Assembly: GCF_026571515.1 (NCBI RefSeq)
Contig: NW_026862116.1
Coordinates: 124,001 to 188,000, forward strand
Source of the DNA: Ruditapes philippinarum
Taxonomy: Eukaryota
Length of the DNA stretch: 64,000 nt
Direction of reading: 5' to 3'
Shown: positions 10,438 through 36,273 of the stretch, in pieces
How positions within the stretch are numbered: the stretch's first letter is position 1
How the letters are laid out: every line of letters starts with the position of its first letter
Translations under genes and position numbers: made by a program
Notes under the pieces: model-generated
The model's database searches: none
The model's input: only the letters and a program-made list of their open reading frames with translations
Told to the model about the DNA's origin: nothing

Positions 10438-10642
10438 GAGGGAAGCAATGGCCTAGAGGGTAAGTTGTCTGTCGTTTAACCCAGTATTCATGAGTTCGAG
10501 CCCTAATCGGGTACGACCATTTTTTTTTTTCACATGGCACCAGTACTGGTTTGTTCCAGGAAACAGACTCGAAAGTAATTAATATAAGTTGATTAAAGAA
10601 CTTGTTTCGCAATATATCTTAAATAAATATGTTTAAACCAAT
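10438..10642 (+). mobile_element. tRNA-derived SINE with 12-bp target site duplication
   Basis: A-box-like TGGCCTAGAGGG and B-box-like GAGTTCGAGCC; exact TSD CCTTATCAAGAT at 10426-10437 and 10643-10654. Confidence 0.85.
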
Positions 10643-11823: not shown

Positions 11824-12127
11824 AGATCCTGTATGTTGTATACCACACTTTATGTATATAATAATGCTGATAAAACAATTTTCAAACATAGAAGAATATG
11901 TAAAATATGTACTGCGAATATTTGTACATATAATATATAATCATTACAATATATGCATTCGTATCTTATTGAACAATTTGACTTTTATTACCTCCCTTTA
12001 TTTATATGAAATGTTACATTCGGTTATAACTTTATAAATAATGCTTTACGGAACTTACAAAATTGATAAATCTGAATTTGAGCATCATATTTATGATATA
12101 AAACCATAAAAATGTGTTACAGGATCT
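11824..12127. mobile_element. MITE with AGATCCTGTA TIRs and TTAA TSD (Kolobok-like), copy 2
   Basis: TTAA-AGATCCTGTA ... TACAGGATCT-TTAA. Confidence 0.8.
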
Positions 12128-12960
12128 TTAAATATAAAATACAAATATCCTAAATGTTTGAAGAACATAACACACCATTTTTTCGGACTTGAGCATAGCT
12201 CCTCTGTAGCGTATAGCTTTACTGACGAATACTATATTAAGTATTGTCATATTAACATAATTATAAAAGAAAACATGCCAAATTATTTAATGGTCGGCTA
12301 TTTTAAAGGGACTATATTAAGGCTTTATAACATCATTGGACTTGAAATAATTTTTCTAGATTAACGTTCCATTTGATGTAGGTCTAGACAAATAGCTTGA
12401 CTGCAAAATTTCCGATAATTAGCTTACTATGATTTACCAAAACAATTGTTCTTATTGTGAAAACAAACCTAAGTATGTCTCATATTGTGGCATTTTCTAT
12501 GAAGAATTGGTATTTTTGCAGTCTGTCTATTTGATTTGATATGTATATAAAGGATAATTGAGATAAACTACTCGATACAATGACGCGTAAGTGTTCAGTT
12601 CTACCAATATCGACTGTCTTAAGATGTATTTTCAAAATACAGACATGGTATGGGCAAAGAATTAAGATTAATATGTAGGAAATTTGAAACCTGAGTTCGA
12701 AACAAAATCAACTGAGACAAAGTGAAATAATACGTACGCAGATATCTTTATTATAGTTTAAATCTGGACATTTCATGTTGATCCTAAACTAAAATTTGCA
12801 TCAGAGTTTATAATGTTGTACAAGTCAACGCAGTTGAAAACAAAAGACTCTCATAACAATGATATACTAATACAAAAATTGCCGTAAAAGTTAGTCACCG
12901 CCGTATTTATACATCTGCGAATGTTTCTAAATTAAAAATGCCACTATTTTGTTGTTTAAC

Positions 12961-13075
12961 TGTTGAATTCTGCTTAAGCGGTGCTATTGGGGGCGTGGGC
13001 GGTAACTTGCACTTTCCAGTACCGTCCATGTAGAGGCTCAATCAAACCGAGCATGCAACAGTTACAATTTAGCCA
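12961..13075 (+). repeat. Solo fragment of structured unit B (pseudoknot core)
   Basis: Close match to 24691-24803: GGGGCGTGGGCGGTAACTTGCACTTTCCAGTACCGTCCATG...GGCTCAATCAAACCGAG. Confidence 0.85.
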
Positions 13076-16000
13076 TCTTGGATTTTCTTTCGATATTTTT
13101 TTCTCATTTTTTTTTATATTGAGCACTTCAATATGTACTAATTTTGTACTTCATCGACTACAGTTTAGAAAATGAAATTGTATACATATAATCTTAGACA
13201 ACTATTAAAATTTCATATTACATTCCGAGAGAATGTATTACATGTTTAACATACTTAAAATTATGAATTTCTGTTATACAACAATTAATGTTTATCATCA
13301 AAAATAATTTATATTCAGACCTCGATTATCGTGACACAAACAACTAAGCACACCCCTGTCATTTTGACTGAATAGTACATTCTATAGTTGCCTAAAGGAA
13401 GGAACTGCGCAATGCTATTACGTTGAGTCAACTGAAATTTTATAGGTGCGTTACACGCAATGCCTTAAACCAATTACTTCTTGACATGCATTACTTTTTT
13501 GTAGATCTAATACAGATACAGTTTACATGAAAGGCAAATCGGCATCAAAACATAAAGCCCGAACTAACAAATATATACATACTCGTTTCTACATAGAGGT
13601 TATATGATGTAACCACATTATTTCTGATAATTCAAAGGCAAAAAGAATTGAATCAATAATTAAAATATTATTTGTTTTTAAATTTAAGGTTACCAGATTT
13701 TATAACTAAACATTTATTTGTCTTTTTTATATAAAAAACACATTGATGCCATTTTATTGTATGTTTTATTTTAAAATGTATTAGTTAAAATTTACTTCAT
13801 GAGAATACAGTGGAATAGTTGTCTGGTCTTGTAAACATAAATGAATGTTCATAAATGAGTGTGGGGGATACTTTCTTGATTGACGCCCAACATTGTTTAT
13901 CATTGTTTTCTTATTTCATACAAACTTATTGTTTTGTCATTTTAAAATAAACATTACTGCTGTGTTTATTATTTCACTGAGATGCTGATATATGCGCATT
14001 TATTTTTTACAACATAGTGAACACCAGTTTAAATATTTCACAAAAGTTTTCGTTTTTATATATATATAACAACGACTATAATATCCAAAGATGAGAAGTA
14101 ATACTAACAAAGAATTGATCTAAAAGAAGTAAACGTATCACATGTTTCTAAGGCCAAGCAACAAAACCGTATATTTTTATTAATCTTTTATCCCAATAAA
14201 CAATAAATCAACAACTTATTGCGATTCTTGATTTAATATGTTATCACCGTTGGTAACGTTCACAGAAAATGATAGGAAATTGCTCGCTAGAAATTACTTC
14301 ATATTATAATATATATCAATGTCTGCCAAGATACTTGTTTTAAAATCTATGTTTAAAACACAGTAAATAGTCAGCTGATTTTCCTGTTGACTTCTGAGAA
14401 AGATCAATTTTGAAAACAATTTGTGAACAATAAAGAATAGAAAAATCAAACTGCCATAGCTCTGATGATTTACGTCTATCATCTGTACGTTCCAACTCTT
14501 TGTTATGTATCATTTCATTATGTGATTGAAGACAATATTAAAAAATAATCCCGATAAAATTTAACCATCTCTGTCTCTCCTCAAACAGTGATATTTACTA
14601 TTTTTCAACTTAAACAGGAAATGATTATTCAGTTCTGTAGCTTACAATATATATTTCACTGTAAAACATTCTTACTTTTAGTGTCATTGCTTTTCACTGG
14701 TTCGTTATAAATGTTGTCGTTTAAATTCACTTAATAACATTTTACATCATTTTCGTTTCGTCAAAACCCTGATCAATAAAATAAATGAAATAAACGTACC
14801 TTACTCATTATATTTACCCATTTTTCTCTTCTTCAAGGAAGGCCATTTTTGGGAGACTGTTCATACTTAAACTATTAATAAATAAATAACAAAAAATAGT
14901 TATATTCTCAATATCGGAACATTTTGAAAACTAAATCGTTTAACATATACGATTTCTCAGTTGATTTAATTGTACCTTTTAAATAACTAATTCTAGTTTC
15001 GTAATGTCGATAAAATTTATGAGGAAATATTGCAAAGACGTTTGTCTCGTTCGAATTGGCAAGATATCATAAAAAAATGTCTACGTATTACACAATAAGA
15101 TCATAGCAACTTGTTCTGTCAAACATTTATTATTTCATCTGTATAAATTTGTCTCATTTTGCATTTATTTTGATTACAAAGAAATACCGTAACCGTATAA
15201 TTTACTTTGTTGTATTGTATGTTGTAAGCTAAATTATATTTTATAAAATTGTATTTATTTTAATAATTTACGCATAAAACATTATTTTAGCTTTAAAAAA
15301 TGCTCTAACCATAAGGTTCCTGTCAAGTATTATTTTTGATAACTGAAATTTTGTTCAGGTGTTGTTTTTGTGTGTTTCGTTCTTAATTCAGTAAATTGAA
15401 TACTAGTATTGTACATCTAAAATCTACATTATTCTGAGTTAATGACAAAAGCATACGATGACGATACAAAAATAAATACAAACTTTATTTTGCGATCTAA
15501 TTTATACATCTATGATTTATTTTTAGGGCATTGCTAGATTGTAAAAACAAAAAGTCATCATAATAAAACGACTTTCAAAATGTGGTTTAATTAGAAATAT
15601 AGGAAAGAAAATAAATTAATGAAATCATTCACCAATGTATCCGCCATAAACATGTACATACAATTATACTGACGAAACTAAATTACGACTATAGATTTAT
15701 GACTATTAGTTATTAAAATTTGTCATGTTAAACATACACATGTAATATCTTATGAAATAACAGACTAAAATTTGCCACAGAAAGAAAGTTTTATTAAAGA
15801 GTATGATTTCATATATTTGCTATAACGTTTTTGAAATATAAACAAATAAAAACTAATAAAAGGCCAATCATAACGACTAAGGTGTAATACAAAGGAAAAT
15901 GCATGACGACATTTCCTTGATATATGTATCTATCATGTACATTTTATGAACATGTATTACTTATAATCTTATCTAAATACGAATAGGAAAAAGAAACAAA

Positions 16001-17924
16001 ACAGAAAAATTGTATAATATATGATGATGTATTGACGCACATTTTATTTCAGAAATTTCTGTTGTTTTTTTTTAGTTTGAATTTACCACTTAACACGAAG
16101 ACTAATTATGAAAAACAAGATTACCAATCAAAAGAGTGCAACACTGAGACTTTGATTTAACACAAACAAGTTGGTTGCATTGAGATATCAGTAAGGATTC
16201 GCGTTAAATTTGTATATTATTTGCTTAAATGCAGGCTATGTGTTTTTGTGTGTTAAAAAACTATGATCAGTTTATAAGCATGATTCTTTATGCATTCATT
16301 TAGGGAGGTCACGCACATATATATGCATATGATTTTAGACAGCTCGTTGTGGTAACTGTATGAAATAAACAAGTAACACACGAGATATTTGTTATAGAAC
16401 TGCAAAATAACTAATGAAGAAAGTCGAAAAAAAATATAAGAGTGCTAAGTAAGAAAATAAGGAAACAATTAAAGGTTAATGTTTATACGTTGGTGCCAAG
16501 ATAACACATCAATTATTAACTGCAGAGCATGCGGGTCCCTAATGGAGATTGAATCGCTAACGTTATAGTTACAAGATTTAGTAAAATGAGTATCAACCAA
16601 TCGTAATTCGACAGATTTTATATCTCTTTTCGGTTACTAACCAACTATGTTCAACATAATCACTAAATTGATATACATACATGTAATTGACAAACTTTCC
16701 TGACCTTCGCAGGCGTTAAAAACTATATTTCTACTAAGAGAAATATTCTTAAAACAATATAAAAGTACAAAATCTATTTCAGAAAACAAAACATAGAAAC
16801 CTTTGTATTTCGGCCAAGGACGCCCCAAAATCGTGCATTATAAAGAAACAAAATTAATATACTTGAACTATCTAGAAAGGAAAAAACATAAGAGATTCCT
16901 TTGAAATGGCGCTCTCAGAAAAAATTTAATCATAAATGTCGGAGGATATCAAACTATTTCACTAATTTAGTAGAAAAAGAAACCAATTTCCGGGAGTTGT
17001 CATATAAATAACATAGTGATATTTTGTTTTCCAATAATACCAAACGAGTGTTTACCTCTGCTTGTTTTTATTATTCTTTAGAGTATATCGTAACATTTGT
17101 CGGATCACATTGTATTTTGAGCTGTCTATCTTTAGCGCGTTTGGTAAATTTTTTTTATCTTCCATAACCACATTCGTGTCCCGTTCGAATTTGATAATTT
17201 GTATCAATTCAAAATTGCACATTTTTTACACTCAAATCCACGCACCAGACATGCGTATAACCTTTTTCAAAGAATACACATATTGTTTGAGTAATTGAAC
17301 AGACTACAGTTTTGGATTATTTGAAAGAAAATACTTCCAAGCCCGTTCGCAGTAAATTCATTCATCATACACGAATATTTATCTGTATCATACTTAATCT
17401 GTATCTTGAAATGACTCTAAAAGTAATCGGATGAGACATTCATCATATGCCGACCTTGAAAATAAGCCGTCTTCTATAAAAATACCAATGGTAGAAAAAA
17501 TGAGCCGCGCCTTATTATCAATTTTGAGGGTATTTGGAAACATTTAATTACATTTCCGTTTTATTAATTGAAAGCATAAAAGGAAACATATTCTCTGTGG
17601 GTCAAGAAATTATTTATAAATATCTAGTGCGTGTATATTTAACTAATCACAACACAGAAGAAAGTGTTTATCAGATTCAACAAGTCTTTATGCTAATAAT
17701 TTACATAACTTGTTTACCCGTGTTGCGCCATTCTATCTACCGGTCTCAATTTCTAACGTTTGTGATCCTAAAGCGCATTACGTAATTTACCGTTTGAGAT
17801 AATATGTAAATGAATTTCATAACATAAAGACATCTTACATTTTTGTGTTTTGATTCATTTCCGACATGCTATTTATTGTTTCTAGTGTGTTTAAGCAACA
17901 GTTCAGGGCTTTTTCATTCAAATC

Positions 17925-18300
17925 TCTGAATACTACTTAGTTCTTCATATACAGCCAAATTTTGTGTTTGCTTCCGCACTCCCAGAATAAACTTGCAAAT
18001 CTGATATCCAGCCTGTCGACTTTTTTATTTAATAAGCACCCCATACTCCAGAGCCATATATTAATACTGGAGCAACAGCAAACAAATACATTCAATTAAG
18101 TGTTGATATCTTAATTGATTCTGTCAAATAACGATGGTAATGATGAGCCCTTAACGCTTGGTCAGACAAAGCTTTTACTGCAGCTGAAAAAATACCAGTA
18201 TATGTAAATCTAACACCTAGATAAGTAAATTTGACTGCCCGATCAATTTTAATTTTATTTGCAATAAACATGCAATTAATTTTACTGTTTACGGTTGGCA
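17925..18300 (-). mobile_element. Decayed L2/CR1-group LINE, RT C-terminal fragment
   Basis: Minus-strand pieces KFTYLGVRFTYTGIFSAAVKALSDQALRA, VAPVLIYGSGVWG and CKFILGVRKQTQNLAVYEELS match the usual FxYLG / PxLxYGxEVWG / FCKxxLGV..xxYGELG succession; frameshifted. Confidence 0.8.
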
Positions 18301-18904
18301 AAATATCTAAACGTTCACAAGCCTGACGTCAGAGCAGAGTAAACTTAAAATTAAAAGTCGTGTTTAAATTTTCTACTTCGCGAAATATGTAATTCAAAAC
18401 AAACGACAGAAAAAAAATACCATAGAAAACATGCCTCATTTAATGTCTTATTTGTTGTATGATTTTGAAAATACTGACTGCAAATGCCTAAATGGTATGT
18501 AATGATTGATAAACTGTTAAAGTTTTTGTTATAACATACAGTAAATTTAGTAAATTGAGTTACAAATGCTTATAAATACTATCAATACATTTAAAAGTGC
18601 AATATCTATATTATCCCGTTTGTAAGGAAATTTGTGATAGAGTTTAGATTAGTTTACATGACTGATGTAAGCTTTACAGCTTTAAATGCAATTGATGAAC
18701 AAAGCAAACAGGAATCAACAATGACAATATAGTTGTGATAACTGAAGGTCCGTTGTATAAACTGTACGTTCGTTATAAAAATGAACAGTAGTGCAATATT
18801 CATATATTCCTTTACTATTTTCATGGCTGAACTTATTTGATCTTTTTCTCAGGGATTGAAATTTGCAAATATTATTACAGTATTCTGGTAATTGAATGTA
18901 GTTT

Positions 18905-18974
18905 TTGCTGGGTCGGGTGGGGGCTGCGTTCATTGAACGCCGCCTTTCCTTGTCGATCTTGTTTATCATATTTT
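18905..18974 (+). mobile_element. 3' tip of the Penelope-like pseudo-LTR (module A), 5'-truncated
   Basis: GGGTCGGGTGGGGGCTGCGTTCATTGAACGCCGCCTTTCCTTGTCGATCTTGTTTATCATATTTT, near-identical to the reverse complement of 26136-26205. Confidence 0.85.
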
Positions 18975-20157
18975 GTAATTGATTTTACCTTTTGTCACTG
19001 ATTGTGCAATGAATATCATCTGCACGATTTGTCACAGTGGTATTTTAAATGTACGAACAACAACATGTCAAATTAAATATATTCCACGCATCACAGATCC
19101 AGATTACATTTGTTTTATTTTGAAGAAAAAAATAAAAAAAAACGAAACTTTTTATTATTGTTCTATCTTCAACGAAAAAGCTGTGTTTACATGTTGAAAC
19201 AAGGATATCTATCTGATTATATTTGTAAAGCAGACTATGACATTTCTAAGAACACTATGAATTGTAAAAATTTACATATGCTATACCAACATCACAATAC
19301 ATTTTCAAAACCAACAAGCAAATGCTGGGAATACTACCCATAAACAGGCCAAATCAAATCTAGTCTGCAACAATTTCAAATTTACTGTTTAAGGCCTTCT
19401 TCGTGTTTTATTCTATTTTTTATCATTTTTTACGTTTCTGCTGCAAGTTAAGTTTGAAAAGGGGCATTACCCCTGATTCTAGATGTAGTAACGGTATACT
19501 GATCTTAATAAAAAACAACATAACATTGTTTATAGTACAAAAAAACAGGAACATAAGAGGGAGATCAAAAGGTTTATTTTGATCATGCAATTAAAAAATA
19601 ACAGACTCATTGAAGGGGAATTGATTGATAATGTAATGTCTGTTATGGGTAATTCTAAGATAAGCGTATATTTAGTGTCCCTCAGCTATTTTAACCTGAA
19701 TTCATTTCTTTTAAAGCATTTCAACGTCTTCTTGTATCATTAATAAAAATCAATAACCAGACATATAAATTTCATATAAAAATATGTTTTTTCTAAACAT
19801 GTTTTGTTGCCATGGATACTGAAAATATGATAAGCAATTGAAATATTGTATGTCCCTATCCCACTTTGCTTAATTTTTTGCATTAAATTGATTTTAAAAG
19901 ACAAAGTGTCTCTTTCTTTGATAAAAATCGTTAATAGTATCACATAAAAGAATTCCTTTTAAAGTTATTCTGGCCTAAATTTTGTTTATATTATATAAAT
20001 TATAGTCACGAAAATAATGTCCCCATGAATCGTGTTCACTACCGTAACAAAAACATCTTGGATCCGTATAGTACCCAAAAAATAAACTTTGTCGATATAT
20101 TATTTGTTTGCGTCATAATTTTGAAGTCACCAAATAAGCATTTTGCGTTACACTGTC

Positions 20158-23129
20158 ATGGAGGACCAGCTCAATGTTAAAGATAAATGTAAAGGTGAGT
20201 ATTGTTTGCGTATGCTTATTGTTTTCCTTACCGTTTATGCTCTAGAAAAGTAAAAATATTGTTATTTTGTACTTTGACATGTTTATATAGTTGTACCGCC
20301 TTGAATGCATAGAGCTTGAAACGATTTAATTCGATTATATATCCAATATGGCGACATTTACCATTTCAATTTACAACCGTTACAGGTCGTTACCGTTATG
20401 CTGAAAATATAACGGTAGTGAACCAACTGTAACGGTAGTGAACTTAAAACAATTCTAATTATTTTATATCATATTGTATTGAAAGTAATGCATTTTCACA
20501 GATACAAATACGACTTAATAAGAAATAATAATACGATGTTTTCGTTTTCAAGTCTGAAATATGGAATATCTTTTCACGAAACATTATAAAATTCCACATA
20601 TTTTCACGAACCGGAACGGCGAATGAAATATAGCTCTTTTGAATTTTATCATATTATTAGTTAAGTGAAAATATATAGATCTACCATATTTCACAAAAAA
20701 TAAAAAAAAATAACATTTTAATTTAATTTTACCTTCGAGAAAAAAAAAATAAGAAAAAAAAACCCTTTCATTTGTAAGGCAGTTGCAATTGTACAGCAAG
20801 CAGTTATACATTGATTGTTTAAAGGTGCGGGATGCAGTTCAATACACAATTCATCACAGCCATATTAAACTGTCTTGAGAAAACATAAACAGCTATTTGC
20901 TGATAATGAAATGAGTAGATCTAGCTGAAGCTACAGACTGCCACAGAAAATCCTCCGAGAAAGTAGTCCCAAAAATATGTATGATTTTTGTCTCTGCCTA
21001 CTTTCATATTTACTTTTCAAAAACTCTGCCTACTTTCATTTTTACTTTTCAAAAACTCTGCCTATTTTCATATATACTTTTCATACAAATTTGATTTTTA
21101 ACAAATTTGATATATATTTGACTGATATAGAATAATATTTCATGGGTAAATTTAAATAATTATATTAACGTTAAAATAATAAACAATAAAAAATATATAT
21201 TCTAATGACATAATAGTTTTATAAATATATTTTAGTAAAATTATGTGTTAGAATTTCAAACAAGTAAGTATAAAATGACAAACAAATTAATTAACTGGTG
21301 GACCGTAAACTTTTCAGACATGTAAAAAGGTGATCATTTTTTTTACCTCTTGTCTAAAAATAGATTTAAAGTTAGTGATTCTATAGTTGCCGGCATATTA
21401 TTATCATAAAAATAAGCATATTTACCTTTCAGAGGCTCTAAATCTTTGGCGTCTGATTTTAAAGATTAATATTGAATACATCATGTGGTAAGTTTCAACG
21501 AAGCATATGTTACAACAAAAAACCTGTAATTGTCTTAGGTAATAATTCATCAATTGAACTATTGAACACATGCTGTTGTTTTTAATTTCCAGAAACACTT
21601 TCTGAATTGATACTTATGACAGATGCTACAGAGAAAAAATTAGAATTATTAGATGGGATTTTAAAAATATTTGAATTATATTCCAACAGGAGAAGACCAA
21701 GACCTGTGGTTCAATGAAAAAGTCAAAATAGAAACCAAAGCTCCAGAATCTCTTTCAACCAAACCCAGGACGACCGAACCCAGGATATCTGAAACCATAA
21801 TGTCCGAACCCAGGACAACTGAACTCGAGACATCTTCAAGCTACACAAGGTAAAGCTTTCCAGCAGTTCATTTATTTAAAATTTGAATAAATTCTTTTCA
21901 GTTCATGCGAAAAGAACAACACAGTATGAATAGGAAATAAGAGAAATTGCCCTAATAATTCATGCTTAATTTGCAGATCATTATACATTATGTTATTTAT
22001 TTTGCATTTTTAGCAGGACTGAACCAGAACAAAAGACATCTAAACCCAGGACGATTGAACTCGAACTCAGAATGGCCGAACCAGGTACAAATGAAGCCAG
22101 GATGTCCGAACCCAGGACAACTGAACTCAATCAATCTTCTAGAAATGCCATCAGTTCATTTATATAAGGTTTGAATCAATTAATTTCCTAGTTCTTGCTA
22201 AAAGAACGAAAGAGTATTATTAGCAAATCGGAAAAATTGCCCTTATGATTCATGGTTAATTTACTGATCATTATATATTCTGTTATTCATTTTGCATTTA
22301 TTCAAATAAAAATTCTTATTGAATTTTAAATAATATTTCTTTTCCAATCGTGAACAGTTTGTTTTAATGGATTGCGAAAATTCTGTTTTACAAAAAATAG
22401 TTTCCTAGTGGGTCATAATTTCTGTATTTTGTAAATTTTTTATTGAAAGGATTCTTGTACAAAACAATAACTGTGAACAAACTGAAAAAAAAGAAGAACT
22501 TAATTTTTTTTCTTAAGAATTGTTTTTACAATTTATTGGTTGCTTTTAGAGACTATAAAAAGTCAAGCCCCTCCCGCCACCCTCCTCAAAATTTACATGA
22601 TTATTACACTTACATGATCACATTACAAGGCCATAACAAATACTTGGTTGTATTTGACTGTATTTTTTTCAGTAACAAAAATGAAATTTCTGAAATGGAG
22701 GATGACATTGCCTACTTGAAAACAAAAGTTAGAAGACTAAAGCGTAAAATGAACAAATTAGATACTGTAGGGGTAGAGTGGGATTGGGACCACAGTAAAA
22801 TTCAGAAAACCATGACAAAGAAAATGAAAAGAAAAATGAAAAAGAGACTGATAAAATATTGGATTTTGAATCCCTTGTAATGGGAAATAAATGTCTGAGT
22901 CAGAGCATCGCAGTTTTTGCAATGAACTTATTTTATTGCAAGAGTTAAAACAAACTGTTTTATAACCGGTAAAACGTCTCCAAAAAGTGTCGGCAGCGAC
23001 AGGCCGGCTCTGGACCAGGAGAAAGTTACTCAAATGTTTAATTTTATTTTGAAAAAAAATCCAGGAACAGAGTTAAAGATCATAGTTGAAAAAGGACAAA
23101 ATATGCAAAAAGTTTTACGCAGACATTGA
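20158..23129 (+). pseudogene. Multi-exon coiled-coil + BEN-domain gene, frameshifted (probably transposon-borne)
   Basis: Exon 1 ATG 20158-20194 (MEDQLNVKDKCK) ending at GTGAGT. AG/GT-bounded exons at 21433-21487 and 21593-21849 (EPRT repeats), plus a duplicated exon at ~22014-22140. Last exon from 22673 encodes a coiled coil (NEISEMEDDIAYLKTKVRRLKRKM) then, across frameshifts, AVFAMNLF/LQELK/NCFITGKTSPKSVGSDRPALDQEKVTQMFNFILKKNPGTELKIIVEKGQNMQKVLRRH*, which fits the BEN pattern LF..EEL...S.TG......RPALD..KV. Confidence 0.75.
20993..21082. repeat. 32-bp minisatellite, about 3 copies
   Basis: CTCTGCCTACTTTCATATTTACTTTTCAAAAA repeated in tandem. Confidence 0.9.
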
Positions 23130-24147
23130 AACTTCAAGAGCGAGTAAATAATGATTAGTCATATGTTGAATTCATTACATAATATACAGTGGTTTTTATG
23201 CTCCCACCATAAAATTATGGAGCAGAACTTGTGTATTTATTCATTGTTTATCTTTCAATTTATCTAATTTATATACGTATTCATTAAATTCTTATCTATA
23301 ATCATATAAATTTTAATTGATTTAAACAAGTTAAATTGCTACTTTTTAATTGACAGTTAAACATTTGTTTTTTGATAATGCAGAATGAAGGATCAATTGT
23401 TTCTACTTCTTATTTAAACTACGTGATTAGATATTATGTTGCATACTTCTTCCTTTTCAATTTGAATTATTTAGATTTAACTTATGATCTGGAATGTACT
23501 TTTTTTAAGAATACAAAGTGGGTTACTGAACACTGAAATAAAATCTATACAAATGCACCTAGACGAATACGAACTGCAATAACACGAATACGAAATTACA
23601 TTTCATTTTTTTTTTACATCTGGCCGGGAACCAATATTTCCGTACAAGTCCGTAATTTCTGACGGTAACCGTTGAAATATTCTCTTCAAAAAAATCCACG
23701 AAATACAGGGTAGCACTCCACAGTTAATTTCAAGTTCCTGCCGTCAATATCCTACAAGCAATACGTCTAATAATTCTGATACCAAACTACACAACCTGGA
23801 AAGAGAAAACACATTTTGTTGGGAACATATATGACAAGATTGCAAATCTACAAAAAAACATCCCATCTGCAATAGGCAGGCACTCAAAAAAGTTGCAATT
23901 CATTCCGTTGAAGCCAAAAAGAGACCCAAAACAACACATTTCGTCCCTCTGACAAAAGATACCTGCAAATATACAGGTTAAAGGAACACCGTCTCTGCTT
24001 TAGCAACTCCCTATACATGCAAAATATCACAAAGAAACTGGTGCTCAACCTTGTAGATTTTTTGCTACAGCTAAAAGTTTGTACTCCCCTGTACAATGAC
24101 TTGTTTTTACCGTGCATGCTGTTAAAAAGCAATGTTTACAAAAAACG

Positions 24148-24843
24148 CGAGCCTGCAACATTTTCAATTTTGTCGTGTTGGGCTTTCTTTAGGGATTCTG
24201 TATTTATCTATTTTATGATCACATCCGTGTTATATGTGCCGTGTGGCGGCTGTAAAAAGTCTCCCCGTACATTTAATCAATGATGTTATATTTTCGATCC
24301 TTGAAGATCGTTCAGCACGATATTATTGTTGTGCTTGTAGTATTTTTAGTTTCAACTTTTCGGCATTTTCTAGTTGGGTGGTTCCAATATTCCTACTTGA
24401 ATAATGTTGAATCACCCTTAGGATATGTTGCCTGCTTTTTAAATTTGTCTTTTGACCTCTTATCTGTGATACGCAGGCTTTATAACCTCTGATCCCCTTT
24501 CAAAATTCTATTTTATTTAGTTCCGCCCATTGTTTTCTCGTTTAGGGCACACGCTTTTTATCACTTGGGGACCATACGCCGCTTTTCATGGAATGGCACG
24601 GAAGTGTCACATTGAAGGTTCCATGATAACCGCCGTATGAACACATCTGCGGATGTTTCTAAATTCAAAATTTTACCAGTTCATGTTAAATGTTGAATTC
24701 TGCTTCAGCCGGTGCTAGGGGGCGTGGACGGTAACTTGCACTTTCCAATACCGTCCATGAACAGGCTCAATCAAACCGAGTCTGCAACATTTTCAATTTT
24801 GCCGTGTTGGGCTTTCTTTAGGGATTCTGTATTTATCTATTTT
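24148..24843 (+). repeat. Structured non-coding unit B: one 629-bp monomer plus 67-bp terminal redundancy
   Basis: 24148-24214 repeats at 24777-24843; several hairpins; homologous pieces at 12961, 25556-25668, 26243-26772 and 27396-27878. Confidence 0.85.
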
Positions 24844-24849
24844 AACTAC

Positions 24850-25202
24850 CACTGACCGTTCCAAAGCGGTACCCCTTTGTGTTCCTTCACTTGTTTTTCT
24901 TGTCTGCATTGTTACTTGTTTTTGGATGTTTACATGTTTTGTGATGTCTGTCTTGTTGGATTTTCGTTGACGGTAGGTATTTTCACTTCCCCTCCCCTCC
25001 ACCTTTTCACCCGTACAGCCCTTATCCCCTTATGGACCCGTTTTTGTTTATATTATTTCACATTACGTGTCCCACTCCTTTCGCCCTTGTGTCCACTCCG
25101 GGTTTGTGTTTGGTGCCTTCTGGGTGCTCTACTTGGGTCCGTCCGGGGGCAGCGTCCTGTGAACGTTGCATTTGCCTTGTTGATCTTTATTCTTGTTATT
25201 TG
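24850..25202 (+). mobile_element. Penelope-like pseudo-LTR, diverged subfamily (A'), starting inside the twister motif
   Basis: Shares ACTGACCGTTCCAA(A/G)GCGG, CGGTA(A/G)GTAT and the 3' ...GAACG..GC.TTT.CCTTGT.GATCTT end with module A. Confidence 0.75.
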
Positions 25203-25668
25203 ATGAAAAAAAAATCTATGCAAAATAGTGATTTTTCGCAATTTTGAGACGTCCCCCGTTGCCATTGTAACAGATTTGCAGGGTAACTTCAAATTTTGAG
25301 TTATGAAAAAAAAAAGAAATTTTCAGTTTCAGCCCATTATCTCCCCAACTGTTGTACATAATTTGATATATGGATATAAAAAAGGAATGATCAGGTCTGA
25401 TTCGTTCAATTTTGTGATGGTTCAATAATGTTTATCAGAGCTATGCCCCTTTAACGTAAAGACTTTCCGTATCTATTGGTTTTCTCCCCGACAGTTGTAC
25501 ATATTTAACTCAAATATGATAAATGGATATGTCATACGTATATGCAGGTCAAAATAATATAGAGTAGAGAAATACAGAATCCCTAAAGAAAGCCCAACAC
25601 GGCAAAATTGTAAAATGTTGCAGGCTCGGTTTGATTGAGCCTGTTCATAGACGGTACTGGAAAGTGCA

Positions 25669-26138
25669 AAAAATATGATAAACAAGATCCTTCAATGAAC
25701 GCAGCTCCCACCCGACCCAGCAACAAGAGCCAGTGGCAAGGAGCCCAGAAGGACCCCAAACAAAAACAGGAAAGGGCACAAGGCAAACAACGGGCAGGCT
25801 AACCACTACCTAAGAATAAAAAATAATAAGAAACTGATAAGGAAATAAAAGAAAACAAATAAATGATTGAACACCAGACCCATAAAGTCAAAAGGCACAG
25901 GGGAAGGGGACACGAGACCCGGGGAGGGGGGAGGGGATAAATAGAATATAATAAAAACTAGGGGCAAAGGGCAAGATACTTACCGTAGACGAGAAAACAA
26001 CAACAGACACAAAAGTGTCACCGAAACAGTATGAAACAACATAGACAAACATCTGAGGAACACAGAGGGGCGCCGCCTTGGAACGGTCAGCAGCATAAAT
26101 ACTATTGGGGAGTTTAAACCGGTTATTGGTGCACCAAA
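25669..26138 (-). mobile_element. Penelope-like pseudo-LTR (module A)
   Basis: Runs from the 3' half of the twister motif to the common 3' end GATCTTGTTTATCATATTT; a tandem partial copy lies at 26139-26243. Confidence 0.8.
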
Positions 26139-26793
26139 TATGATAAACAAGATCATCAAGGAAAGGCGGCGTTCAATGAACGCAGCCCCCACCCGACCCA
26201 GTAACAAGAGCCAGTGGCAAGGAGCTCAGGAGGACTCCAAAAAATAGATAAATACAGAATCCCTAAAGAAAGCCCAACACGGCAAAATTGAAAATGTTGC
26301 AGTGTCGGTCTTATTGAGCCTGTTCATGGACGGTACTGAAAAGTGCAAGTTACGTCCAAGCCTCCCTCCCCAACCCCGGCTTAAGCAGAATTCAAGATTT
26401 AAATATGAAAAGGTAAAATTTGGAATTTTGAAACATCCGCAGATGTGTTTATATAGCGATTATCATGGAACCTTCAATGTGACACGGTAGTGCCATTCCA
26501 TAAAAAGCGGCATATGGTCCCCAAGTAAAAAAAAGCGTGTGCCCTAAACGAGAAAACAATGGGCGGAACTAAATAAAATGGAATTTTGAAAGGGGATCTG
26601 AGGTTATGAAGCCTGCGTATCACAGATAGGACGTCAAAAGACAAATTTAAAAAGCAGGCAACATATCCTAAGGGTGATTCAACATTATTCAAGTAGGAAT
26701 ATTGGAACCACCCAACTAGAAAGTGCCAAAAAGTTGAAACTAAAAATACCACAAGCACAACAATAATGTCATCCAAACCTCACTCTTAGCCCC
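26067..26793 (-). ncRNA. Putative type-P5 twister ribozyme, split in two (5' half 26793-26773, 3' half 26138-26067)
   Basis: Joined halves read GGGGC UAA GAGU GAGG UUUGG ugcaccaauaa CCGG UU UAA ACUC CC C-AAUAGUA uuua UGCUGCU-G A CCG UUCCAAGG CGG C GCCCC. Stems P1-P5 and both pseudoknots can be paired by hand. Confidence 0.7.
26243..26772 (-). repeat. Unit B copy, inverted relative to 24320-24843
   Basis: High-identity reverse complement; the supplied ORFs 24280-24492 and 26474-26776 show the same spurious translation. Confidence 0.9.
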
Positions 26794-26816
26794 ACCATGT
26801 TCCTATAAACGAGACA

Positions 26817-26871
26817 GTGTAAATAAAATGAATCCCCGCCAAGTGAAATTCTAACAGTTGTCATCGTTACA
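26817..26871 (-). promoter_or_regulatory. Degenerate SECIS-like hairpin in the PLE 3'UTR
   Basis: AUGA-CAACUGUUAG-AA-UUUCAC-UUGGCGG-GGAU with lower UGUAA/UUACA pairing; the upper helix is short and GU-rich. Confidence 0.3.
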
Positions 26872-27025
26872 AAAGGTGAAATAAGTAAAACATCGAAATG
26901 GTCATGTAGAAACATACAAAAGAAACCCCAATGACCATAACAAAAGTACTCAATGTCTTAAAGGAAGACAGAGTAACAAGAAGATCACCTACAAGGGCCC
27001 GACGAAGCAAGACAGAAGAAGGGCT

Positions 27026-27365
27026 TTAAGAACTGTCCATCATAGTCTCCCACTTAGTCCGTCAGATGTTATCAAAAGACGAAAGCGTTGCGTCCAACTG
27101 TAAGCGTTGCGTCCAACTGTACATGGGTTGAACACTAAGCATGCGGTATGTCTTAAAATAAAAGGATCATACTCCCTTTTAGTAAAGACAACAGAAAAAT
27201 TACAATGACCCAAGATCTTACGAAGTTTGTAAACAACATCCCCGTAAAATTCAGGCTGGCTAATCCCTTGTCGCAGAAGAGTTTTCAGATCACTATTGAA
27301 TTTTGAAATTAAATCAAAGTTACGATTGTAAATTTTGTAAAATATTTACGTTAATTATAATAGCG
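27026..27365 (-). mobile_element. Penelope-like element (Naiad-type) reverse transcriptase C-terminal fragment
   Basis: Translation YNRNFDLISKFNSDLKTLLRQGISQPEFYGDVVYKLRKILGHCNFSVVFTKREYDPFILRHTACLVFNPCTVGRNA resembles the C-terminus of molluscan PLE RTs (recognised from memory, not searched). The frame ends with no downstream GIY-YIG, as expected for N-terminal-EN PLEs. This frame is absent from the ORF track. Confidence 0.8.
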
Positions 27366-27395
27366 AAGCATTTATCACAACAAAATTACAAGAGA

Positions 27396-27878
27396 ATTGC
27401 AAACTCGGTTTGATTGAGGATAATGGATAAGTGCAACATCCCTCACGCACCTTAGCACCGGCTTGAGCGGTGCTCAATTCACAACACCTAATAGTGCTGG
27501 CATCAATGATACCGAAGGACCAGACAATATAACAACACTGAAGTAAAGTACGGGGCAACTTTTTACAGCTACCACACGGCACTTGACACCCTCATAAGAT
27601 CCCTTATGAAAGCCCAACACGGCCAAATTGAAAATGTTGCGGGCTCGGTTTGATTAAGCCTGTTCATGGACGGTAATGTCAAGTGCAAACTACCGTCCAC
27701 GCCCCCTAACACCAACTTCCCGGCCCCTTAGCACCGGCATAATTCAACATTTACCATGATCTGGTAAAATTTAGAATTTTGAAACATCCGCAGATGTGAT
27801 CATATGGCGGTTATCATGGAACCTTCAATGGGACACGTTAGTGCCATTCCATGAAAAGCGGCATATGGTCCCCAAGTA
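27396..27878 (-). repeat. Unit B fragment followed in tandem by a short (240-bp period) B variant
   Basis: CTCGGTTTGATT at 27404 and 27644; the conserved B blocks recur in the same order. Confidence 0.8.
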
Positions 27879-29399
27879 AACTCATATAGATATGTTGATA
27901 TTATGGAATAACAAACCACGAATAAAGTATATATGTTATTACTGCAGAATCTAGGTAATAAAGCTGTACCAGACAGAACTACCGGTAAATAAAACATTTT
28001 ATTCCAAGAATTATTTCATAACAATTTTGAAATGATACATTTTCATTGTTTTATCAAAAGTTAAGTCTTCAAGAACATGTGACCAGAATAGGCTAATTCT
28101 CTTTAAGTTGACTAACAATATACATACACAGGTCGCCAATGTAAATTTAGTAATCCTGACTGTGAATCACTTAATAACATAATATTACATTAATTACAGC
28201 ATCGGGTGTGTCTAACTGATTAAATTATAGTTATAAACATATTATATGATACCGCCATTGAAATGGAATTGACTACAAGAAGTCGGTAAAATCGGTATAA
28301 ATTTATTTCCATAGCCAGCACGCCGTTTGCAAAACTGATACAATCAAATGTTTACAGTGTTTTATTAACATGACATTTAATTAATATAAATATCACATGA
28401 TAATGTCAAGTCACCAAGCTTGAACCAAAAATCATGCTTTATCTGCGTAAATGATTAATGATTAAAGCTAGTCGTCGTTCTTTACAAAAAAACATGGTAT
28501 AATCATTTAACATCACTGTGATTATTTAACATTTTTTGTCATTTATTCGAAAAAAAGATATCTTAAAATGCATTCAGTTTGATTTGTTTATCTTAAACGT
28601 ATCTTCCAACAGTGTTTAACAAATAGCTTATATATCTTTGAGAATTTGTTGAGAAATGAGAAGATTTTATCAAAAAGCAAGTTCAAGTTTATTGTTATGA
28701 AGTTCTAGGCCATCGGCCCATATACACAATATAATAACAGAAAGATACATGTACATCTGTTTGTGTCGCAAATTACAGAATGCAAAATAGAAGCATATTC
28801 TATTATATTGAACATTGAACAAGAAGGTAGAAAATAATACATATTACAAAGACTTTAATGTTAAACACGTAGTGTCAAGTTCAGAAAATGGAGAACTGTA
28901 CAAAAAAGACATTAATACATGAAAAATATTTTGTTTACATTATATCAAGTCTTCACACAGATATTATTGTCTTATACTATCAAATTTAGGCAAAATAAAA
29001 AGACATTTTCAATAACTATACGGTTATTATTAATAACGCAGTATGGACATATTCTGTCTCTCAATGCTATAATGTCGCCTAATTCCTATGTTTTAGCTAT
29101 CATTTGAACATATGAAACGCGCAAGTGATTTCCTAAAAAGAAAGAAATAGCAAATTCATATTTAGATATTGTTCAACGTCCAATAAAGATTTAAATGTAG
29201 TATATGTGTCATATCTCGTAGAGGAATGAATGTCTTCAGACCAATTTTGTACCAAACAGTCGGCAATACTTTGTTTAAACGAATATAAACAAATTAAAAT
29301 CTAAACATAACCATATATATATAAAAGTTCGCGGACATGTGTAGCCCCCCCCCCCCTTTTTTTTCTTCCAATATCACCCTGCAACCTTAACATATTGTA

Positions 29400-31900
29400 A
29401 CAGCTTCTTGGATAACGCATTACCGGCATCTGTAAAAGTTTACCCCGATATTTGATGCATTTAATGTAATAAATTGTAAATTAAGCATAACGGAAGACGT
29501 GCACATTCACCCGATGACATACTATTTTTCACGGAATAGTTTACACCTAAAAAGTTTCTACAGAAGTCACTTTGCATGGATATTTTCTATTTCGGATGCA
29601 TACAAATTTCTGCTCCGAATGTCAATATCAGAACTATCATGGAAACGGATAACTTAAACATATCTTGTGATGATGTGAGAAATGATTGCAAATACGGCTT
29701 TTCTAGCTAGCCTACATATTGCGGTAGTCCAAATTAATGTTGGGGTAAATAAAAGACCCATGCGCTTATATATCAAAGCTAACTTTACCTTAATGCCATT
29801 GTATGACCATTTGCCAGAATGTTCACCGTCATTCCGGAACGATTACTAACTCGGATACGGCGTTTAGCTGTAATGGCAAGTTATGTACGATATCCGTCCC
29901 ACAAGCAACATCGTCCGCAAAATGTAAACATGAAGTATCTGATGTATCACTCGTCATAAAAATACCGTTACACGTTTCCCCAAGTGGAATATTAAGTCGT
30001 TAATCTATAAGTTGAACTTTGGCTAAAAATATGATCAACAAGGAAAGGCGGTGTTCAATGAACGCAACCCCCACACGATCAAGCAACAAGAGCCAGTGGC
30101 AAGGAGACCAGAAATACCCCAAACAAAAAAGTACAGGGCACAAGGCAGAGCATTGGCAGGTTAATCACTAAAATTATACATTAGAAGAAATAATTAGTAA
30201 CTGATAAGGAATTCAAAGAAGACAAATAAATGATTGATCAAAAGGCTTATAAAGTCAAAGGGCACTTGGGAAGGGGACAGGAGATCCGGAGAAGGGGGTG
30301 TAAATAAAACAAAAATAAAAACTAAGTGCAAAGAAGAAGATACTTACCGTAGACGAGAAAAGAATAAGGGACACAAAAGTGTCACCAATATAATATAGAC
30401 CATAATTGTCTACACATGTCTAGTTGCCTACTTTATCATTCCCACATCTTCCATTCGTTATGTGTATGTTATATGTACAACATTTTTCAAGTAAAAAATT
30501 AACATTACATTATCGAGAATTATCCTTATTGCTACTATGTTAATCAAAACAATCCGATTCAAAGTCGACTGTTTAATGTTAAAAGTAATCTAGTTTATCA
30601 AAAGGAATATAATCACAAAATCTACTGTTCTGGCATTAAAATCGCCAGCAAGAAATAAATTGCAATTAGGAAAATCATGTTTAAGATCAAAAAAATGTAC
30701 ATATATAGTGCAAAGCCAGTATTTTAAGTATTATTACGATAAGCTGTTCACCCTTCAGTGGAAATATACATTATATATTCAATAATATATTCCATTACTC
30801 TAAACAAGCTACCTTGCAATAGTAGAACCACATATTCATTAAATTAAATTCATGCTTAATTCGTGATATCTGTTTTGAAAAAACATGATCTTCCTAGACA
30901 AATACACTTATTCCAGCACTATTTCCTAAAGCACAATATTGTTTTTTTTTCACAATGACAAAACCCAGGCAAAGGCAAAGACGTATCAAATTCACCAATG
31001 TTTTTAATAAACCAACAATGTCGAAATCATTTAAATAATTGATCAATGTTATATCGTGTATATGTTTATTTAGACCTGTCAATATAATTATATGTTTATA
31101 GATAGTTACTGGATCTGTTCTTTTGGCTGGGCCTTATACCAAAGTTACAGTTTGCGTTTCGATGCCGTCGTCTGTTTGTTGATAACAAGCGCCTGTAATT
31201 ACCCGTTTCCGTCGTCTCTGATGACTTTTGTTCCCGGGTGTCTACGTGCATGAACTATGATATAATTGTCTTTTTTTCTTCGTCATATATGTGCACTGTG
31301 TTTTCAATAATACGTTTATCATAGCACATCGAAGCGAACTGTCCGTTTTACTTAGCATGTAGGAGGCGTTTACCTAGTTATCATCGATGTAGTTTTACAC
31401 GGTCCGTAAAATCCTCAGTATCTAACACTTATCTAGACTGATTGAGTATAGTTTCCATGTCTTTGAGAATTTAACAATATCAGTACTTTTATTTTCGTAA
31501 CGTGACTCCATACGACGTGCTTCAATCTCGGCTTGTTCCATATAAGGCATATTTAGATCGGATGTAAAGAAATGTATCACTTTTCACTTTACGCGTGTAT
31601 TGTTCCTTCTAGAAGTGTCTTCTCATTTGTCCGTTTTCTTCATGATTATATCAAATCCTTACCATAGTCTTTTTTTCCCTTCTTTAAGCGATTCATTTCT
31701 GCTTTTACTTGATTCATACTAATTCTAATTTACTAGTTCTAATTTCTTGTAAATATTCAAGTACTTCTGCAATATTGCTAGCATTATTACTGGGTGGGGT
31801 TCCAGGTTCAGATGAAAGGTTTTTATTTGTGTTGGGTTCTCGTTCTTGGTTCATTTACAGAAGGTAATGCTTAAGAAAATGTAATATGTGTCTGTCTGTT
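29400..31900 (-). mobile_element. Decayed, internally deleted L2/CR1-group LINE (ORF1, APE endonuclease, RT)
   Basis: ORF1-like EDFTDRVKLHR..LGKRLLHAK.NGQFASMCYDKRII (~31300-31420); APE motifs YLNDFDIVGL, GISVFV and LFLAGDFNART (~30630-31080); RT CLHFADDVA (~29905-29930) and FCRNFLGV...GECARLPL (~29490-29570). Confidence 0.85.
30026..30386 (-). mobile_element. Module A (PLE pseudo-LTR) copy nested in the LINE
   Basis: Colinear with 25669-26022; lies between the APE and RT remnants. Confidence 0.85.
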
Positions 31901-33870: not shown

Positions 33871-36273
33871 TTATTATACCACCGCACAACAAAGTTGTAA
33901 GGGGGGTATACTGGAATCAGCTTGTCCGTCCGGCTGTCCTTCCGTCCGGCCGTCCGTCGGTTTTTTCTTGTCCGCCCAATAACTTAACATTCCTTTGACC
34001 CACAGTCTCCATATTTTGCATGCAGGTTAGTCATGACAAGTAGATGACACCTATTTATTTTGAGGACACCAGGTCAAAGGTAAAGGTCACAGGGGCCTTG
34101 ACTTCAAAAAGCTTGTCCGCCCAATAACGTATGATTCCTTTGACCCACAGTCTTCATATTTGGCATGCAGGTTAGTCATGTTGAGCAGATGACCCCTATT
34201 GATTTTGAGGTCACCAGGTCAAAGGTCACAGGGGCTTTGACTTCAAAAAGCTTGTCCGCCCAATAACTTCAGATTCCTTTGACCCACAGTCTTCATATTT
34301 GGCACGCAGGTTAGTCATGTTGAGTAGATGACCCCAATTGATTTTGAGGTCACCAGGTCAAAGGTCAAGGTCACAGGGGCCTTGACTTCAAAAAGCTTGT
34401 ATGCCCAATAACTTAAAGATTCCTTTGACCAACAGTATACATATTTGGCATGCAGGTTAGTCATGACAAGTAGATGACCCCTTTTTGATTTTGAGGTGAA
34501 AGGTCAAGGTCACAGGGACCTTGACTTCAAAAAGATTGTCTGCCCAATAACTTAAGATTCCTTTGACCCACAGTCATCATATTTGGCATGGAGGTTAGTC
34601 ATGACGTGTAGATGACCCCTATTGATTTTGAGGTCAAAGGTTAAGGTCACAGGGGCCTTGACTTCAAAAAGCTTGTCCGCCCAATAACTTAAGATTCCTT
34701 TGACCCACAGTCTTCATATTAGGTATGGAGGTTAGTCATGTTTAGTAGATGACTCCTGTTGACTTTGAGGTCACCAGGTCAAAGGTCAAGGTCACAGGGG
34801 CCTTGACTTCAAAAAGCTTGTCCGCCCAATAACTTAAGATTCCATTGACCCACAGTCATCATATTTGGCATGGAGGTTAGTCATGACGTGTAGATGACCC
34901 CTATTGATTTTGAGGTCAAAGGTTAAGGTCACAGGGGCCTTGACTTCAAAAAAGCTTGTCCGCCCAATAACTTAAGATTCCATTGATCCACAGTCTTCAT
35001 ATTTCGCATGGAGGTTAGTCATGACAAGTAGATGACCCCTATTGATATTGAGGTCACCAGGTCAAAGGTCAATGTCACAGGGGCCTTGACTTCAAAAAGC
35101 TTGTCCGCCCAATTACTAGATTTCTTTTACCCACAGTCTTCATATTTGGCTTGGAGGTTAGTCATGTTGAGTAGATGACCCCTTATGATTTAGAGGTCAC
35201 CAGGTCAAGGTCACAGCAGCCTTGAATTCAAAAAGCTTGTCCGCCCAATAACTTAAGAATCCTTTGACCCACAGTCTTCATATATGGCATGGAGGTTAGT
35301 CATGATAAGTAGATGACACCTTATGATTTTGAGGTCACCAGGTCAAGGTCACAGGGACTTTGACTTCAAAAAGTTTGTCAGCCCAATAAATTAAGAAACC
35401 TTTGACCCAAAGTCTTTTAATTTGGCATGGAGGTTAGTCATGATTAGTTGATGTCCCCTATTGATTTTTTTTGGACACTGGGTCAAAGGTCAAGGTCACA
35501 GGGCCTTGACCATAAAAAGCTTGTCCGCCCAATAACTTAAGATTCCTTTGATCAACAGTCTTCATATTTGGCATGCAGGTTAGTCATGACGAGTAGATGA
35601 CCCCTATGATTTTGAGGTCACCAGGTCAAAGGTCAATGGTCACAGGGGCTTTGACTTCAAAGAGCTTGTCCGCCCAATAACTTAAGATTCCTTTGACCCA
35701 CAGTCTTCATATTTGGCATGCAGGTTAGTCATGACGAGTAGATGACCCCTATTGATTTTGAGGTCACCAGGTCAAGGTCACGGGGGATCTTGACTTCAAA
35801 AAGCTTGTCCGCCCAATAAATTAAGAAACCTTTGACCCACAGTTTTCATATTTGGCATGGAGGTAAGTCATGATTAGTAGATGTCCCCTATTGATTTGTT
35901 TTGGACACTGGGTCAAAGGTCAAGGTCACAGGAGCATTGACTATAATAAGCTTGTCCGCCCAATTACTTAAGATTCCTTTGACCCACTGTCTTCATATTT
36001 GGCATGGAGGTTAGTCATGATTACCCCTTTTGATTTTGAGGGTACTGGGTCAAAGGTCAACTAAAAAAAAATTTCCCCTCAATTACTTAAGAATGCCTGT
36101 CCACAGTGTATTGATTTTGACATTTTCACATTTGAAGCATGTAGAATACATAACTTAGAATGCACTGGCTTAGATTTGGCAGGGACATTGTCCTTGAGCT
36201 CTAAATGGCCACTGTTGATTCTGACACAGTGGTATGCGGGGGTATTCACGCCATGACAGTGGCAGTTCTAGTT
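33871..36273 (+). mobile_element. Non-autonomous Helentron-type element (HINE) with internal satellite array
   Basis: Subterminal IR ATACCACCGCA (33876)/TGCGGGGGTAT (36235); 5' hairpin; (GTCC)n-like microsatellite ~33923-33960; 3' hairpin GCCATGACAGTGGC then TTCTAGTT; (TTA)n on both flanks. Confidence 0.85.
33965..36090. repeat. ~141-bp satellite, about 15 monomers
   Basis: Anchor TTGTCCGCCCAATAAC (or close variant) recurs from ~33969 to ~35952 at roughly 136-146 bp spacing. Confidence 0.97.

Follow-up and report, generated by a model that had tools for sequence, protein, structure and literature searches.

Animal retrozymes that lack long terminal repeats (non-LTR retrozymes) carry a type I hammerhead in each unit, and their circular RNA (circRNA) has been cloned in mussel, coral and axolotl (PMC7229834; 10.64898/2026.07.22.740005; both in the portions available). 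MRC1 and other putatively non-autonomous Penelope-like elements (PLEs) of the Chlamys clade, which is mostly without hammerheads, have pseudo-long terminal repeats (pLTRs) and multicopy head-to-tail insertions, according to the accessible text of PMC8557442. For PAc, a Poseidon PLE of Anolis, the accessible sections of PMC11167929 report that reverse transcription starts internally on a junction-spanning RNA at an AT-rich target, and that hammerhead cleavage is dispensable in vitro. In the present work, we examine a non-coding repeat, called B, at positions 24148 to 24843 of a 64,000-nt stretch of the Ruditapes philippinarum genome (contig NW_026862116.1, positions 124,001 to 188,000, forward strand; hereafter the window). 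A preliminary description had taken it for a retrozyme-like RNA parasite that travels with a PLE.

We consider it quite probable that B is a protein-less repeat with a 5' end homologous to that of the PLE Naiad, copied by the Naiad reverse transcriptase (RT)/endonuclease, which would load on a predicted RNA domain at the junction between tandem units. B is tied to Naiad because the two have a homologous 5' end and a common predicted junction fold. It is thus likely a non-autonomous Naiad partner, which would be mobilised in trans, while the label "retrozyme" is not established for it.

Compared with the non-LTR retrozymes, as the available texts describe them, B is likewise non-coding, a few hundred base pairs long, arranged in short dispersed tandem arrays and related to PLE ends, and retrozymes are thought to use PLE enzymes. 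Unlike them, it lacks the hammerhead core words and has Naiad as its partner, and no abundant RNA was seen for it in two libraries. The pLTRs, the head-to-tail insertions and the lack of hammerheads are features that B has in common with MRC1 and its relatives. MRC1, however, belongs to a green alga and to the Chlamys clade and resembles its autonomous family at the 3' end, whereas in B the Naiad 5' end is retained as sequence and the 3' end chiefly through pairing. On what is accessible of the source, the nearest counterparts of B are the non-autonomous Chlamys elements, MRC1 among them. PAc, as far as its report could be consulted, differs in being autonomous and in having a C-terminal endonuclease, a hammerhead, an AC-rich stem-loop start and an optional tail, while B has a U-rich tail at its 3' terminus and a single dominant end. 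We found no account of non-autonomous Naiads or of the junction fold in the literature searched, which included the accessible part of the bivalve transposon survey PMC10294476, with subscription journals and Repbase outside the search; the accessible part of PMC8557442 names neither.

Results and Discussion

The window contains one complete B unit of 629 nt, 98% identical to a 630-nt consensus that was derived from 75 monomers genome-wide. Directly upstream of it lies a partial copy of the unit's own last 72 nt, with 67 of the 72 positions identical, and the stretch as originally delimited (from 24148) begins 5 nt short of the start of this partial unit. The longest stop-free run is 71 codons and the longest starting with Met is 70, tandem junctions included. 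The preliminary description was therefore right in proposing a monomer with head-to-tail redundancy and no credible open reading frame (ORF). It was also right about the hairpin CATACG..GGCAC(NNNN)GTGTC..CGTATG, which lies at 24573-24639 and has the loops GGAA, TAAC and TACC in three window copies, and about B being highly structured: the plus strand of the window copy folds more stably than every one of 20 shuffles (z −4.6, compared to −2.6 for the minus strand). The parts of the unit are as follows.

24143..24214, plus strand: 5'-truncated upstream partial B, its last 72 nt, a pseudo-LTR-like terminal redundancy.
24215..24843, plus strand: complete B unit of 629 nt, with 98% identity to the consensus.
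24215..24301, plus strand: 5' segment, a homologue of autonomous Naiad's first 87 nt (B consensus and Naiad copy L173, 92%).
24221..24286, plus strand: predicted 5' hairpin with a GUAAAA tip and the near-invariant core GUGC CGUGUGG / CCCC GUAC, common to Naiad and the 283-bp unit.
24296..24319, plus strand: predicted 5' arm of a long-range stem, with partner 24803-24826, or 24174-24197 of the upstream partial across the junction.
24573..24639, plus strand: variable-tetraloop hairpin, specific to B.
24689..24791, plus strand: predicted multi-hairpin module common to B and the 283-bp unit, without detectable Naiad homology; its last hairpin has 21,877 exact matches in the genome.
24803..24826, plus strand: predicted 3' arm of the long-range stem.
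24827..24843, plus strand: unpaired U-rich tail with TATCTATTTT as its last letters, where insertions have their fixed 3' end; putative start site of reverse transcription.

We turn to the relation with Naiad. The window pieces adjoining B translate to an RT C-terminus, and the long elements traced from this piece encode an N-terminal GIY-YIG domain and an RT, with in-frame UGA codons. Their protein matches, by eye, the selenoprotein Naiad_Mmer in the part of the PMC8557442 supplement available, and the UGA codons fall at the cysteine positions where Naiad_Mmer and Naiad_Scon have them. The proteins fall into RT-like eukaryotic Atlas clusters at 0.93-0.97, and Pfam and PDB sequence searches with them gave no match. 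Nucleotides 1-87 of B match, at 92% identity, the stretch that immediately follows the tandem junction in the full Naiad copy L173. The published Naiad_Scon and Naiad_Mmer are, in the accessible text, autonomous elements of 3.9-4.2 kb; B, in contrast, has no ORF and no match to their 3' untranslated region (UTR), which bears a selenocysteine insertion sequence (SECIS). The body of B, its 3' ~500 nt, likewise has no BLAST match to the available Naiad UTRs, and B is accordingly not an ordinary UTR or pLTR of the Naiads found. A second non-coding family, with a 283-bp unit, has the same tandem habit; its 3' end is fixed in 66 of 85 pieces, and nt 22-88 and 480-574 of B recur in it at ~80%. It occurs for instance at L040:3231-4351 and at 27365-27590 of the window, ends in CCAGAATTTT and gave 1,634 candidates in the genome.

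The predicted domain common to these elements spans the junction between one unit's 3' end and the next unit's 5' end. We clustered 171 junctions, which yielded groups of B (n=87), the 283-bp unit (n=40 and n=4), Naiad type (n=4) and older B (n=2), plus singletons. Each main cluster folds independently to one shape, namely a long outer stem enclosing a U-rich loop with the insertion end and the 5' hairpin; many singletons, often rearranged, do not fold in this way. Thirteen representatives picked by hand from the 171 were aligned with plain MAFFT, without structure, and passed to RNAalifold, which predicts 37 pairs, 19 of them doubly changed, with a covariation term of −6.2. In this alignment 96% of the paired cells can pair, compared to 35-53% when the partners are slid, and the pairing that is conserved contains numerous G-U pairs on the Naiad-sense strand. 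The covariation that had been looked for in B is thus found in this domain, across about four lineages; it supports a shared junction-spanning domain, although it is not a significance test.

The outer stem can also be examined as a duplex between the two ends of an element. Within a family the energies are −31.8 (B-B), −30.3 (283-bp unit), −25.4 (NA-NA) and −22.3 kcal/mol (NB), where NA and NB are the two Naiad families of the window, while the cross pairing B-NA reaches only −13.8 kcal/mol. The own-family value was matched by none of 500 shuffles for B and for the 283-bp unit, and by 16 and 28 of 500 for NA and NB, respectively. Along the 4,266 nt of Naiad, the best partner of the 5' arm is the element's last 60 nt. 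In the accessible material of PMC8557442, Naiad_Scon starts with a hairpin of the B type and has, by eye, a 13-bp end-to-end stem of different sequence, and among 26 records listed, a related TGCTGGTGGA..CCCCGAGG word stands near the start of eight further bivalve Naiad consensuses. The oyster/mussel-type 5' word has no exact match in the R. philippinarum genome.

Other parts of the predicted fold were also considered. The consensus gives z values of −4.8 and −4.1 for the plus and minus strands, a smaller gap than in the window copy, and the 283-bp unit gives −6.6. In the second module, common to B and the 283-bp unit, 9 of 33 pairs are doubly changed, essentially across one lineage split. The tetraloop hairpin varies in its loop over 311 distinct alignments, and one outer pair changes from C-G to U-A in 24 copies, which is weak support because both sides are CpG transitions. 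Of 60 common variants of B, 37 lie at unpaired positions, which make up 41% of the sites (p 0.0015), while 13 keep and 10 break a predicted pair, so that the central part of the predicted fold is less secure. We also considered the internal module of B and the 283-bp unit as a permuted form of the Naiad 3' UTR module, which is unsupported (rotated local alignments of 24 compared to a null mean of 24.9, and of 34 compared to a null maximum of 36).

How B inserts can be read from its genomic copies. The 1.41-Gb genome was searched with B DNA and the best 40 of 3,336 candidates were scored; among these, 630-bp periodic arrays occur on many contigs. From the best matches, 38 loci of 7-10 kb were fetched, with arrays of 1.1-7.6 units. 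Their 3' ends fall at unit nt 627-629 in 35 of 38 (the other three at 240, 581 and 620), while the 5' ends are scattered. The count was repeated on 238 distinct pieces, of which 55 lie in loci picked for Naiad rather than for B: the 3' end is within the last 6 nt in 171 of the 238, and in 40 of the 55. Only 17 of the 238 begin at nt 8 or less, and ~16 are estimated from the 35-nt hit filter alone. The flank after the 3' end begins with A in 25 of 35 arrays, some insertions have an inverted 5'-truncated copy beside them (L034, L240 and others), and no consistent target-site duplication was found in the 38 arrays. An optional PLE tail of 30-40 bp was not seen either, as none of the 238 pieces ends in unit nt 1-30 and two end in nt 31-60, with the caveat that matches below 35 nt were filtered and short tails could escape. 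The fixed 3' end, the ragged 5' ends and the partial tandems forming a pLTR are the hallmarks of a PLE-type retroposon. Arrays of several units are in the minority, since 38 of the 40 3'-intact pieces in the Naiad-picked loci are shorter than one unit.

The family is large. The 3' hairpin motif common to B and the 283-bp unit has 21,877 exact matches in the genome (control 0), and the 5' motif 4,886-5,753 (4,886 for the core pattern; controls 0); the 3' motif is commoner, as 5' truncation would lead one to expect. A Naiad UTR motif has 2,392 exact matches, so that the B and 283-bp parasites outnumber their Naiad host ~9-fold. From the depth of run X21, read as Hi-C DNA, the copy number of B is ~7,000-12,700 per position.

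At 212 sites of the 5' motif, the preceding sequence is the 3' end of the same family in 181 cases and no family end in 29; the two mixed cases keep a short tail of their own family. Similarly, 107 of 120 B starts come after a B end, and the upstream flanks of the 38 arrays have no common sequence. Units differ by a median of 0.6% within arrays (75 pairs) and 2.1% between them (2,700 pairs), and 10 of 17 multi-unit arrays have a locus-private variant common to their units. The own-family ends and the array-private variants together mean that the template runs through the junction and that arrays derive from one unit lineage. A circle, an end-to-end transfer and the copying of a homogeneous array would all three fit this pattern.

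A ribozyme is the feature by which a retrozyme would be recognised. Non-circularly permuted hammerheads (types SGC, CSG and GCS) have the words CUGAnGA (block C) and GAAA (block G) on a single strand, whatever their order (accessible text of PMC10085705). Neither word occurs on the sense strand of B, of the 283-bp unit (dimers included) or of the L173 Naiad UTRs, and CUGAnGA is also absent from the B antisense strand. An Rfam scan of 12000-31000 with E up to 10 gave 5 weak hits, none overlapping B, and a word-pattern search of B for hammerhead, twister, pistol and hepatitis delta virus (HDV) ribozymes gave a single twister-like 5' word without its 3' partner. An antisense hammerhead near 24290-24320 was considered and rejected, as it has no CUGAnGA and the matching words are missing from the 283-bp unit and from Naiad. 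The lack of a recognisable hammerhead noted at the outset therefore stands. Of the marks of a retrozyme, B shows the dispersed non-coding tandem arrays and lacks a type I hammerhead per unit; of those of a non-autonomous PLE, it shows the fixed 3' end, 5' truncation, pLTR, inverted copies and a terminus shared with Naiad, and lacks the optional tail. No tRNA-related head of a short interspersed nuclear element was found, ARAGORN giving 0 genes in the window and Rfam nothing on B, although degenerate heads could escape both.

For RNA, two real RNA runs (X23 and X24) were available, of unknown tissue and library selection; poly(A) selection would lose circles. Two further runs, X21 and X22, are labelled RNA-Seq but show loose ends at GATC sites, GATCGATC joints and even strand depth, and were treated as Hi-C DNA. 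B accounts for 45 and 71 reads per million in the two RNA runs, compared to ~8,060 in DNA, so an abundant parasite RNA is not seen in these libraries. B has an RNA/DNA ratio of 0.003 in X23 as well as in X24; for the Naiad ORF the ratio is 0.0006 in the former and 0.003 in the latter. The B reads come from both strands, are mostly 90-99% alike and in about three quarters of cases continue into sequence unrelated to B, the pattern to be expected of copies that lie within host transcripts. Only 2 and 10 reads cross the junction (X23 and X24, respectively), and the depth drops there.

These observations lead us to propose the following course for B. A junction-continuous RNA would arise, probably by read-through of an upstream partial unit. 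Its last ~40 nt are predicted, with support from covariation, to pair with nt ~82-105, enclosing the U-rich tail and the 5' hairpin as in Naiad RNA. If the anole PLE is a guide, AT-rich DNA would be nicked by the Naiad protein and cDNA would begin inside the U-rich tail, a start that would give the fixed 3' end without a ribozyme cut. Synthesis seems mostly to halt early, to judge from the truncated and sometimes inverted pieces. Occasionally, several rounds on one unit may follow, by end-to-end transfer on the stem-closed template or by use of a circle, with near-identical arrays as the outcome. More tentatively, and as a possibility that we hold somewhat short of probable, the junction domain could be the cis-acting element of hammerhead-less Naiads in general: its end-to-end stem would close the RNA to a pseudo-circle or circle and offer a U-rich template loop to the telomerase-related RT for repeated rounds, B and the 283-bp unit would be minimal ribozyme-free replicons, and the same domain would also be present at published bivalve Naiad ends.

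It is important to point out what weighs against copying by Naiad through the junction domain. Multi-unit arrays are a minority (38 of 40 3'-intact pieces in Naiad-picked loci are below one unit), and their homogeneity could stem from a homogeneous source array or from homogenisation at the DNA level. X23 and X24 contain little B RNA, it is unstranded, and only 2 and 10 of its reads cover the junction. The 13 junction rows were hand-picked and amount to about four lineages (B, 283-bp, NA and NB), the shuffle counts are not probabilities, and the Naiad end duplexes stand only modestly above shuffles (16 and 28 of 500). With no match in Pfam or PDB, the Naiad label is based on the accessible PMC8557442 supplement and on the Atlas, and the Naiads do not explain the origin of the B body, whose 3' ~500 nt have no BLAST match to the available Naiad UTRs.

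Three other explanations were weighed. In the strong form of the preliminary description, B would be a covalent circular RNA of the retrozyme kind that an unrecognised ribozyme or a host enzyme cuts and closes, with the arrays as rolling-circle cDNA made by the Naiad RT. The near-identical arrays of up to 7.6 units, the homotypic junctions, 5' ends that do not clearly accumulate at nt 1 (17 of 238 lie at nt 8 or less), the compact folds (z −4.8 for B and −6.6 for the 283-bp unit) and the second structured module in both parasites (9 of 33 pairs doubly changed) are all in its favour. We regard it nevertheless as unlikely, as the sense strands of the B and 283-bp dimers have neither CUGAnGA nor GAAA, Rfam has no match on B, and the two libraries, of unknown selection and tissue, show no abundant RNA and a depth drop at the junction.

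Less probable still than the circular RNA, in our view, is that B is the terminal region (pLTR or UTR) of another autonomous PLE, its pieces being truncated 3' ends. Most copies are indeed 3' fragments, the body is unexplained by the Naiads found, and the genome searches score only the best candidates. The upstream flanks of 38 arrays, however, have no common sequence, 107 of 120 B starts follow a B end, whole units without an ORF are repeated up to 7.6 times, and the 3' motif of B and the 283-bp unit is ~9-fold commoner than the Naiad UTR motif. Equally improbable is a repeat at the DNA level, carried by a Helitron or Helentron or expanded by unequal crossover as a satellite, with a single origin from a Naiad end. 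Such elements end in 5' TC and 3' CTRR, or have subterminal inverted repeats. No ends of this type were found in the 38 B arrays, where one end is TATTTT and the other is ragged. Tandem arrays, no target-site duplication and little RNA would suit this explanation, and Helentron-borne tandem repeats have been reported in oyster. Against it stand the thousands of dispersed insertions with one end fixed, the other ragged and 5' inversions, as well as the conserved pairing with many Naiad-sense G-U pairs, which is shared with the retroelement; the 3' end is moreover not CTRR.

B "travelling with" the PLE in a physical sense proves to be a minority pattern. Of 137 terminal B 3' ends, 104 adjoin unrelated DNA and 11 adjoin Naiad in sense and 2 in antisense; the remaining ones adjoin internal B (14 sense, 3 antisense) or the 283-bp unit (1 and 2). 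The B/283-bp motif is present in 7 of 30 Naiad-centred 3-kb loci, with 1.4 matches expected (6 in the same sense, 5 opposite), the Naiad motif in 0 of 30 B/283-bp-centred loci (0.15 expected), and the Naiad motif lies within ~10 kb of 7 of 38 young B arrays (0.6 expected). The clustering is real but minor, and the sense bias of the contacts may reflect template switching or a T-rich target strand. In the window, the statement that four of the five larger fragments abut the PLE in the same sense was slightly overstated: three of the five are in direct contact with Naiad in the same sense, whereas a fourth touches a 283-bp-family piece that itself touches Naiad, and one stands alone. The neighbouring pieces are:

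24841..25201, plus strand: 5'-truncated 3' UTR end of the second Naiad family NB, meeting the B 3' end via a 3-nt TTT overlap.
25565..25669, minus strand: fragment from the 3' part of B (unit nt 523-626), immediately following a Naiad 3' end.
25670..27365, minus strand: RT C-terminus and 3' UTR of Naiad family NA; a B fragment and a 108-nt Naiad 3' end interrupt it at 26137-26772.
26241..26770, minus strand: B fragment, unit nt 105-630, 93% identical to the consensus, nested in the Naiad 3' UTR.
27365..27590, minus strand: fragment of the 283-bp unit, nt 17-255.
27599..27879, minus strand: older B fragment, unit nt 347-612, 85%.
12897..13090, plus strand: solitary older B 3' fragment, unit nt 415-606, 87%.

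Elsewhere in the genome, on contigs C2 (L237-L245) and C132 (L226) and at locus L170, fragments of B, the 283-bp unit and Naiad are densely nested over a few kb and face both ways. The abundant Naiad family is found at L173 (minus strand), L174:1785-5049 and L176:3153-5003, with UGA at conserved cysteine positions as in Naiad_Mmer and, by eye, a SECIS-like hairpin just 3' of the ORF; the second family, NB (L179, L182, L265), has a different 3' UTR. A structured multi-hairpin module lies in the Naiad 3' UTR at 26040-26140 of the window (minus strand) and in L173, L176 and L182, with z from −3.1 to −5.1. Its hairpin tip is palindromic in every family although the letters differ (TGGTGCACCA, GGCGCGCC, and GGAGCGCTCC in the accessible Naiad_Scon sequence), possibly an RNA dimerisation signal or a degenerate ribozyme. 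At L214:1484-2500 there is a 244-bp tandem array of Naiad's own 5' and 3' ends, a direct deletion derivative. The window also has tandem arrays unrelated to B at 33967-36021, 54008-54312 and 54509-55487 (periods of 145, 52 and 161 bp), which we take to be possibly cores of Helentron-type elements, and other dispersed repeats of 72-75% identity at 4845-5862, 11851-12132, 13117-13344 and 38923-39083, with no match to B, the 283-bp unit or the Naiads.

Conclusion

The 630- and 283-nt parasites show which parts of such an element are dispensable and which are required, since both keep the 5' hairpin, the U-rich tail and the end-to-end stem. The sequence of this stem is rewritten in each family, which provides ready compensatory mutations and a short template for an in vitro assay of the anole-PLE type. 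Retrozyme screens based on hammerheads would miss a class of abundant PLE parasites.
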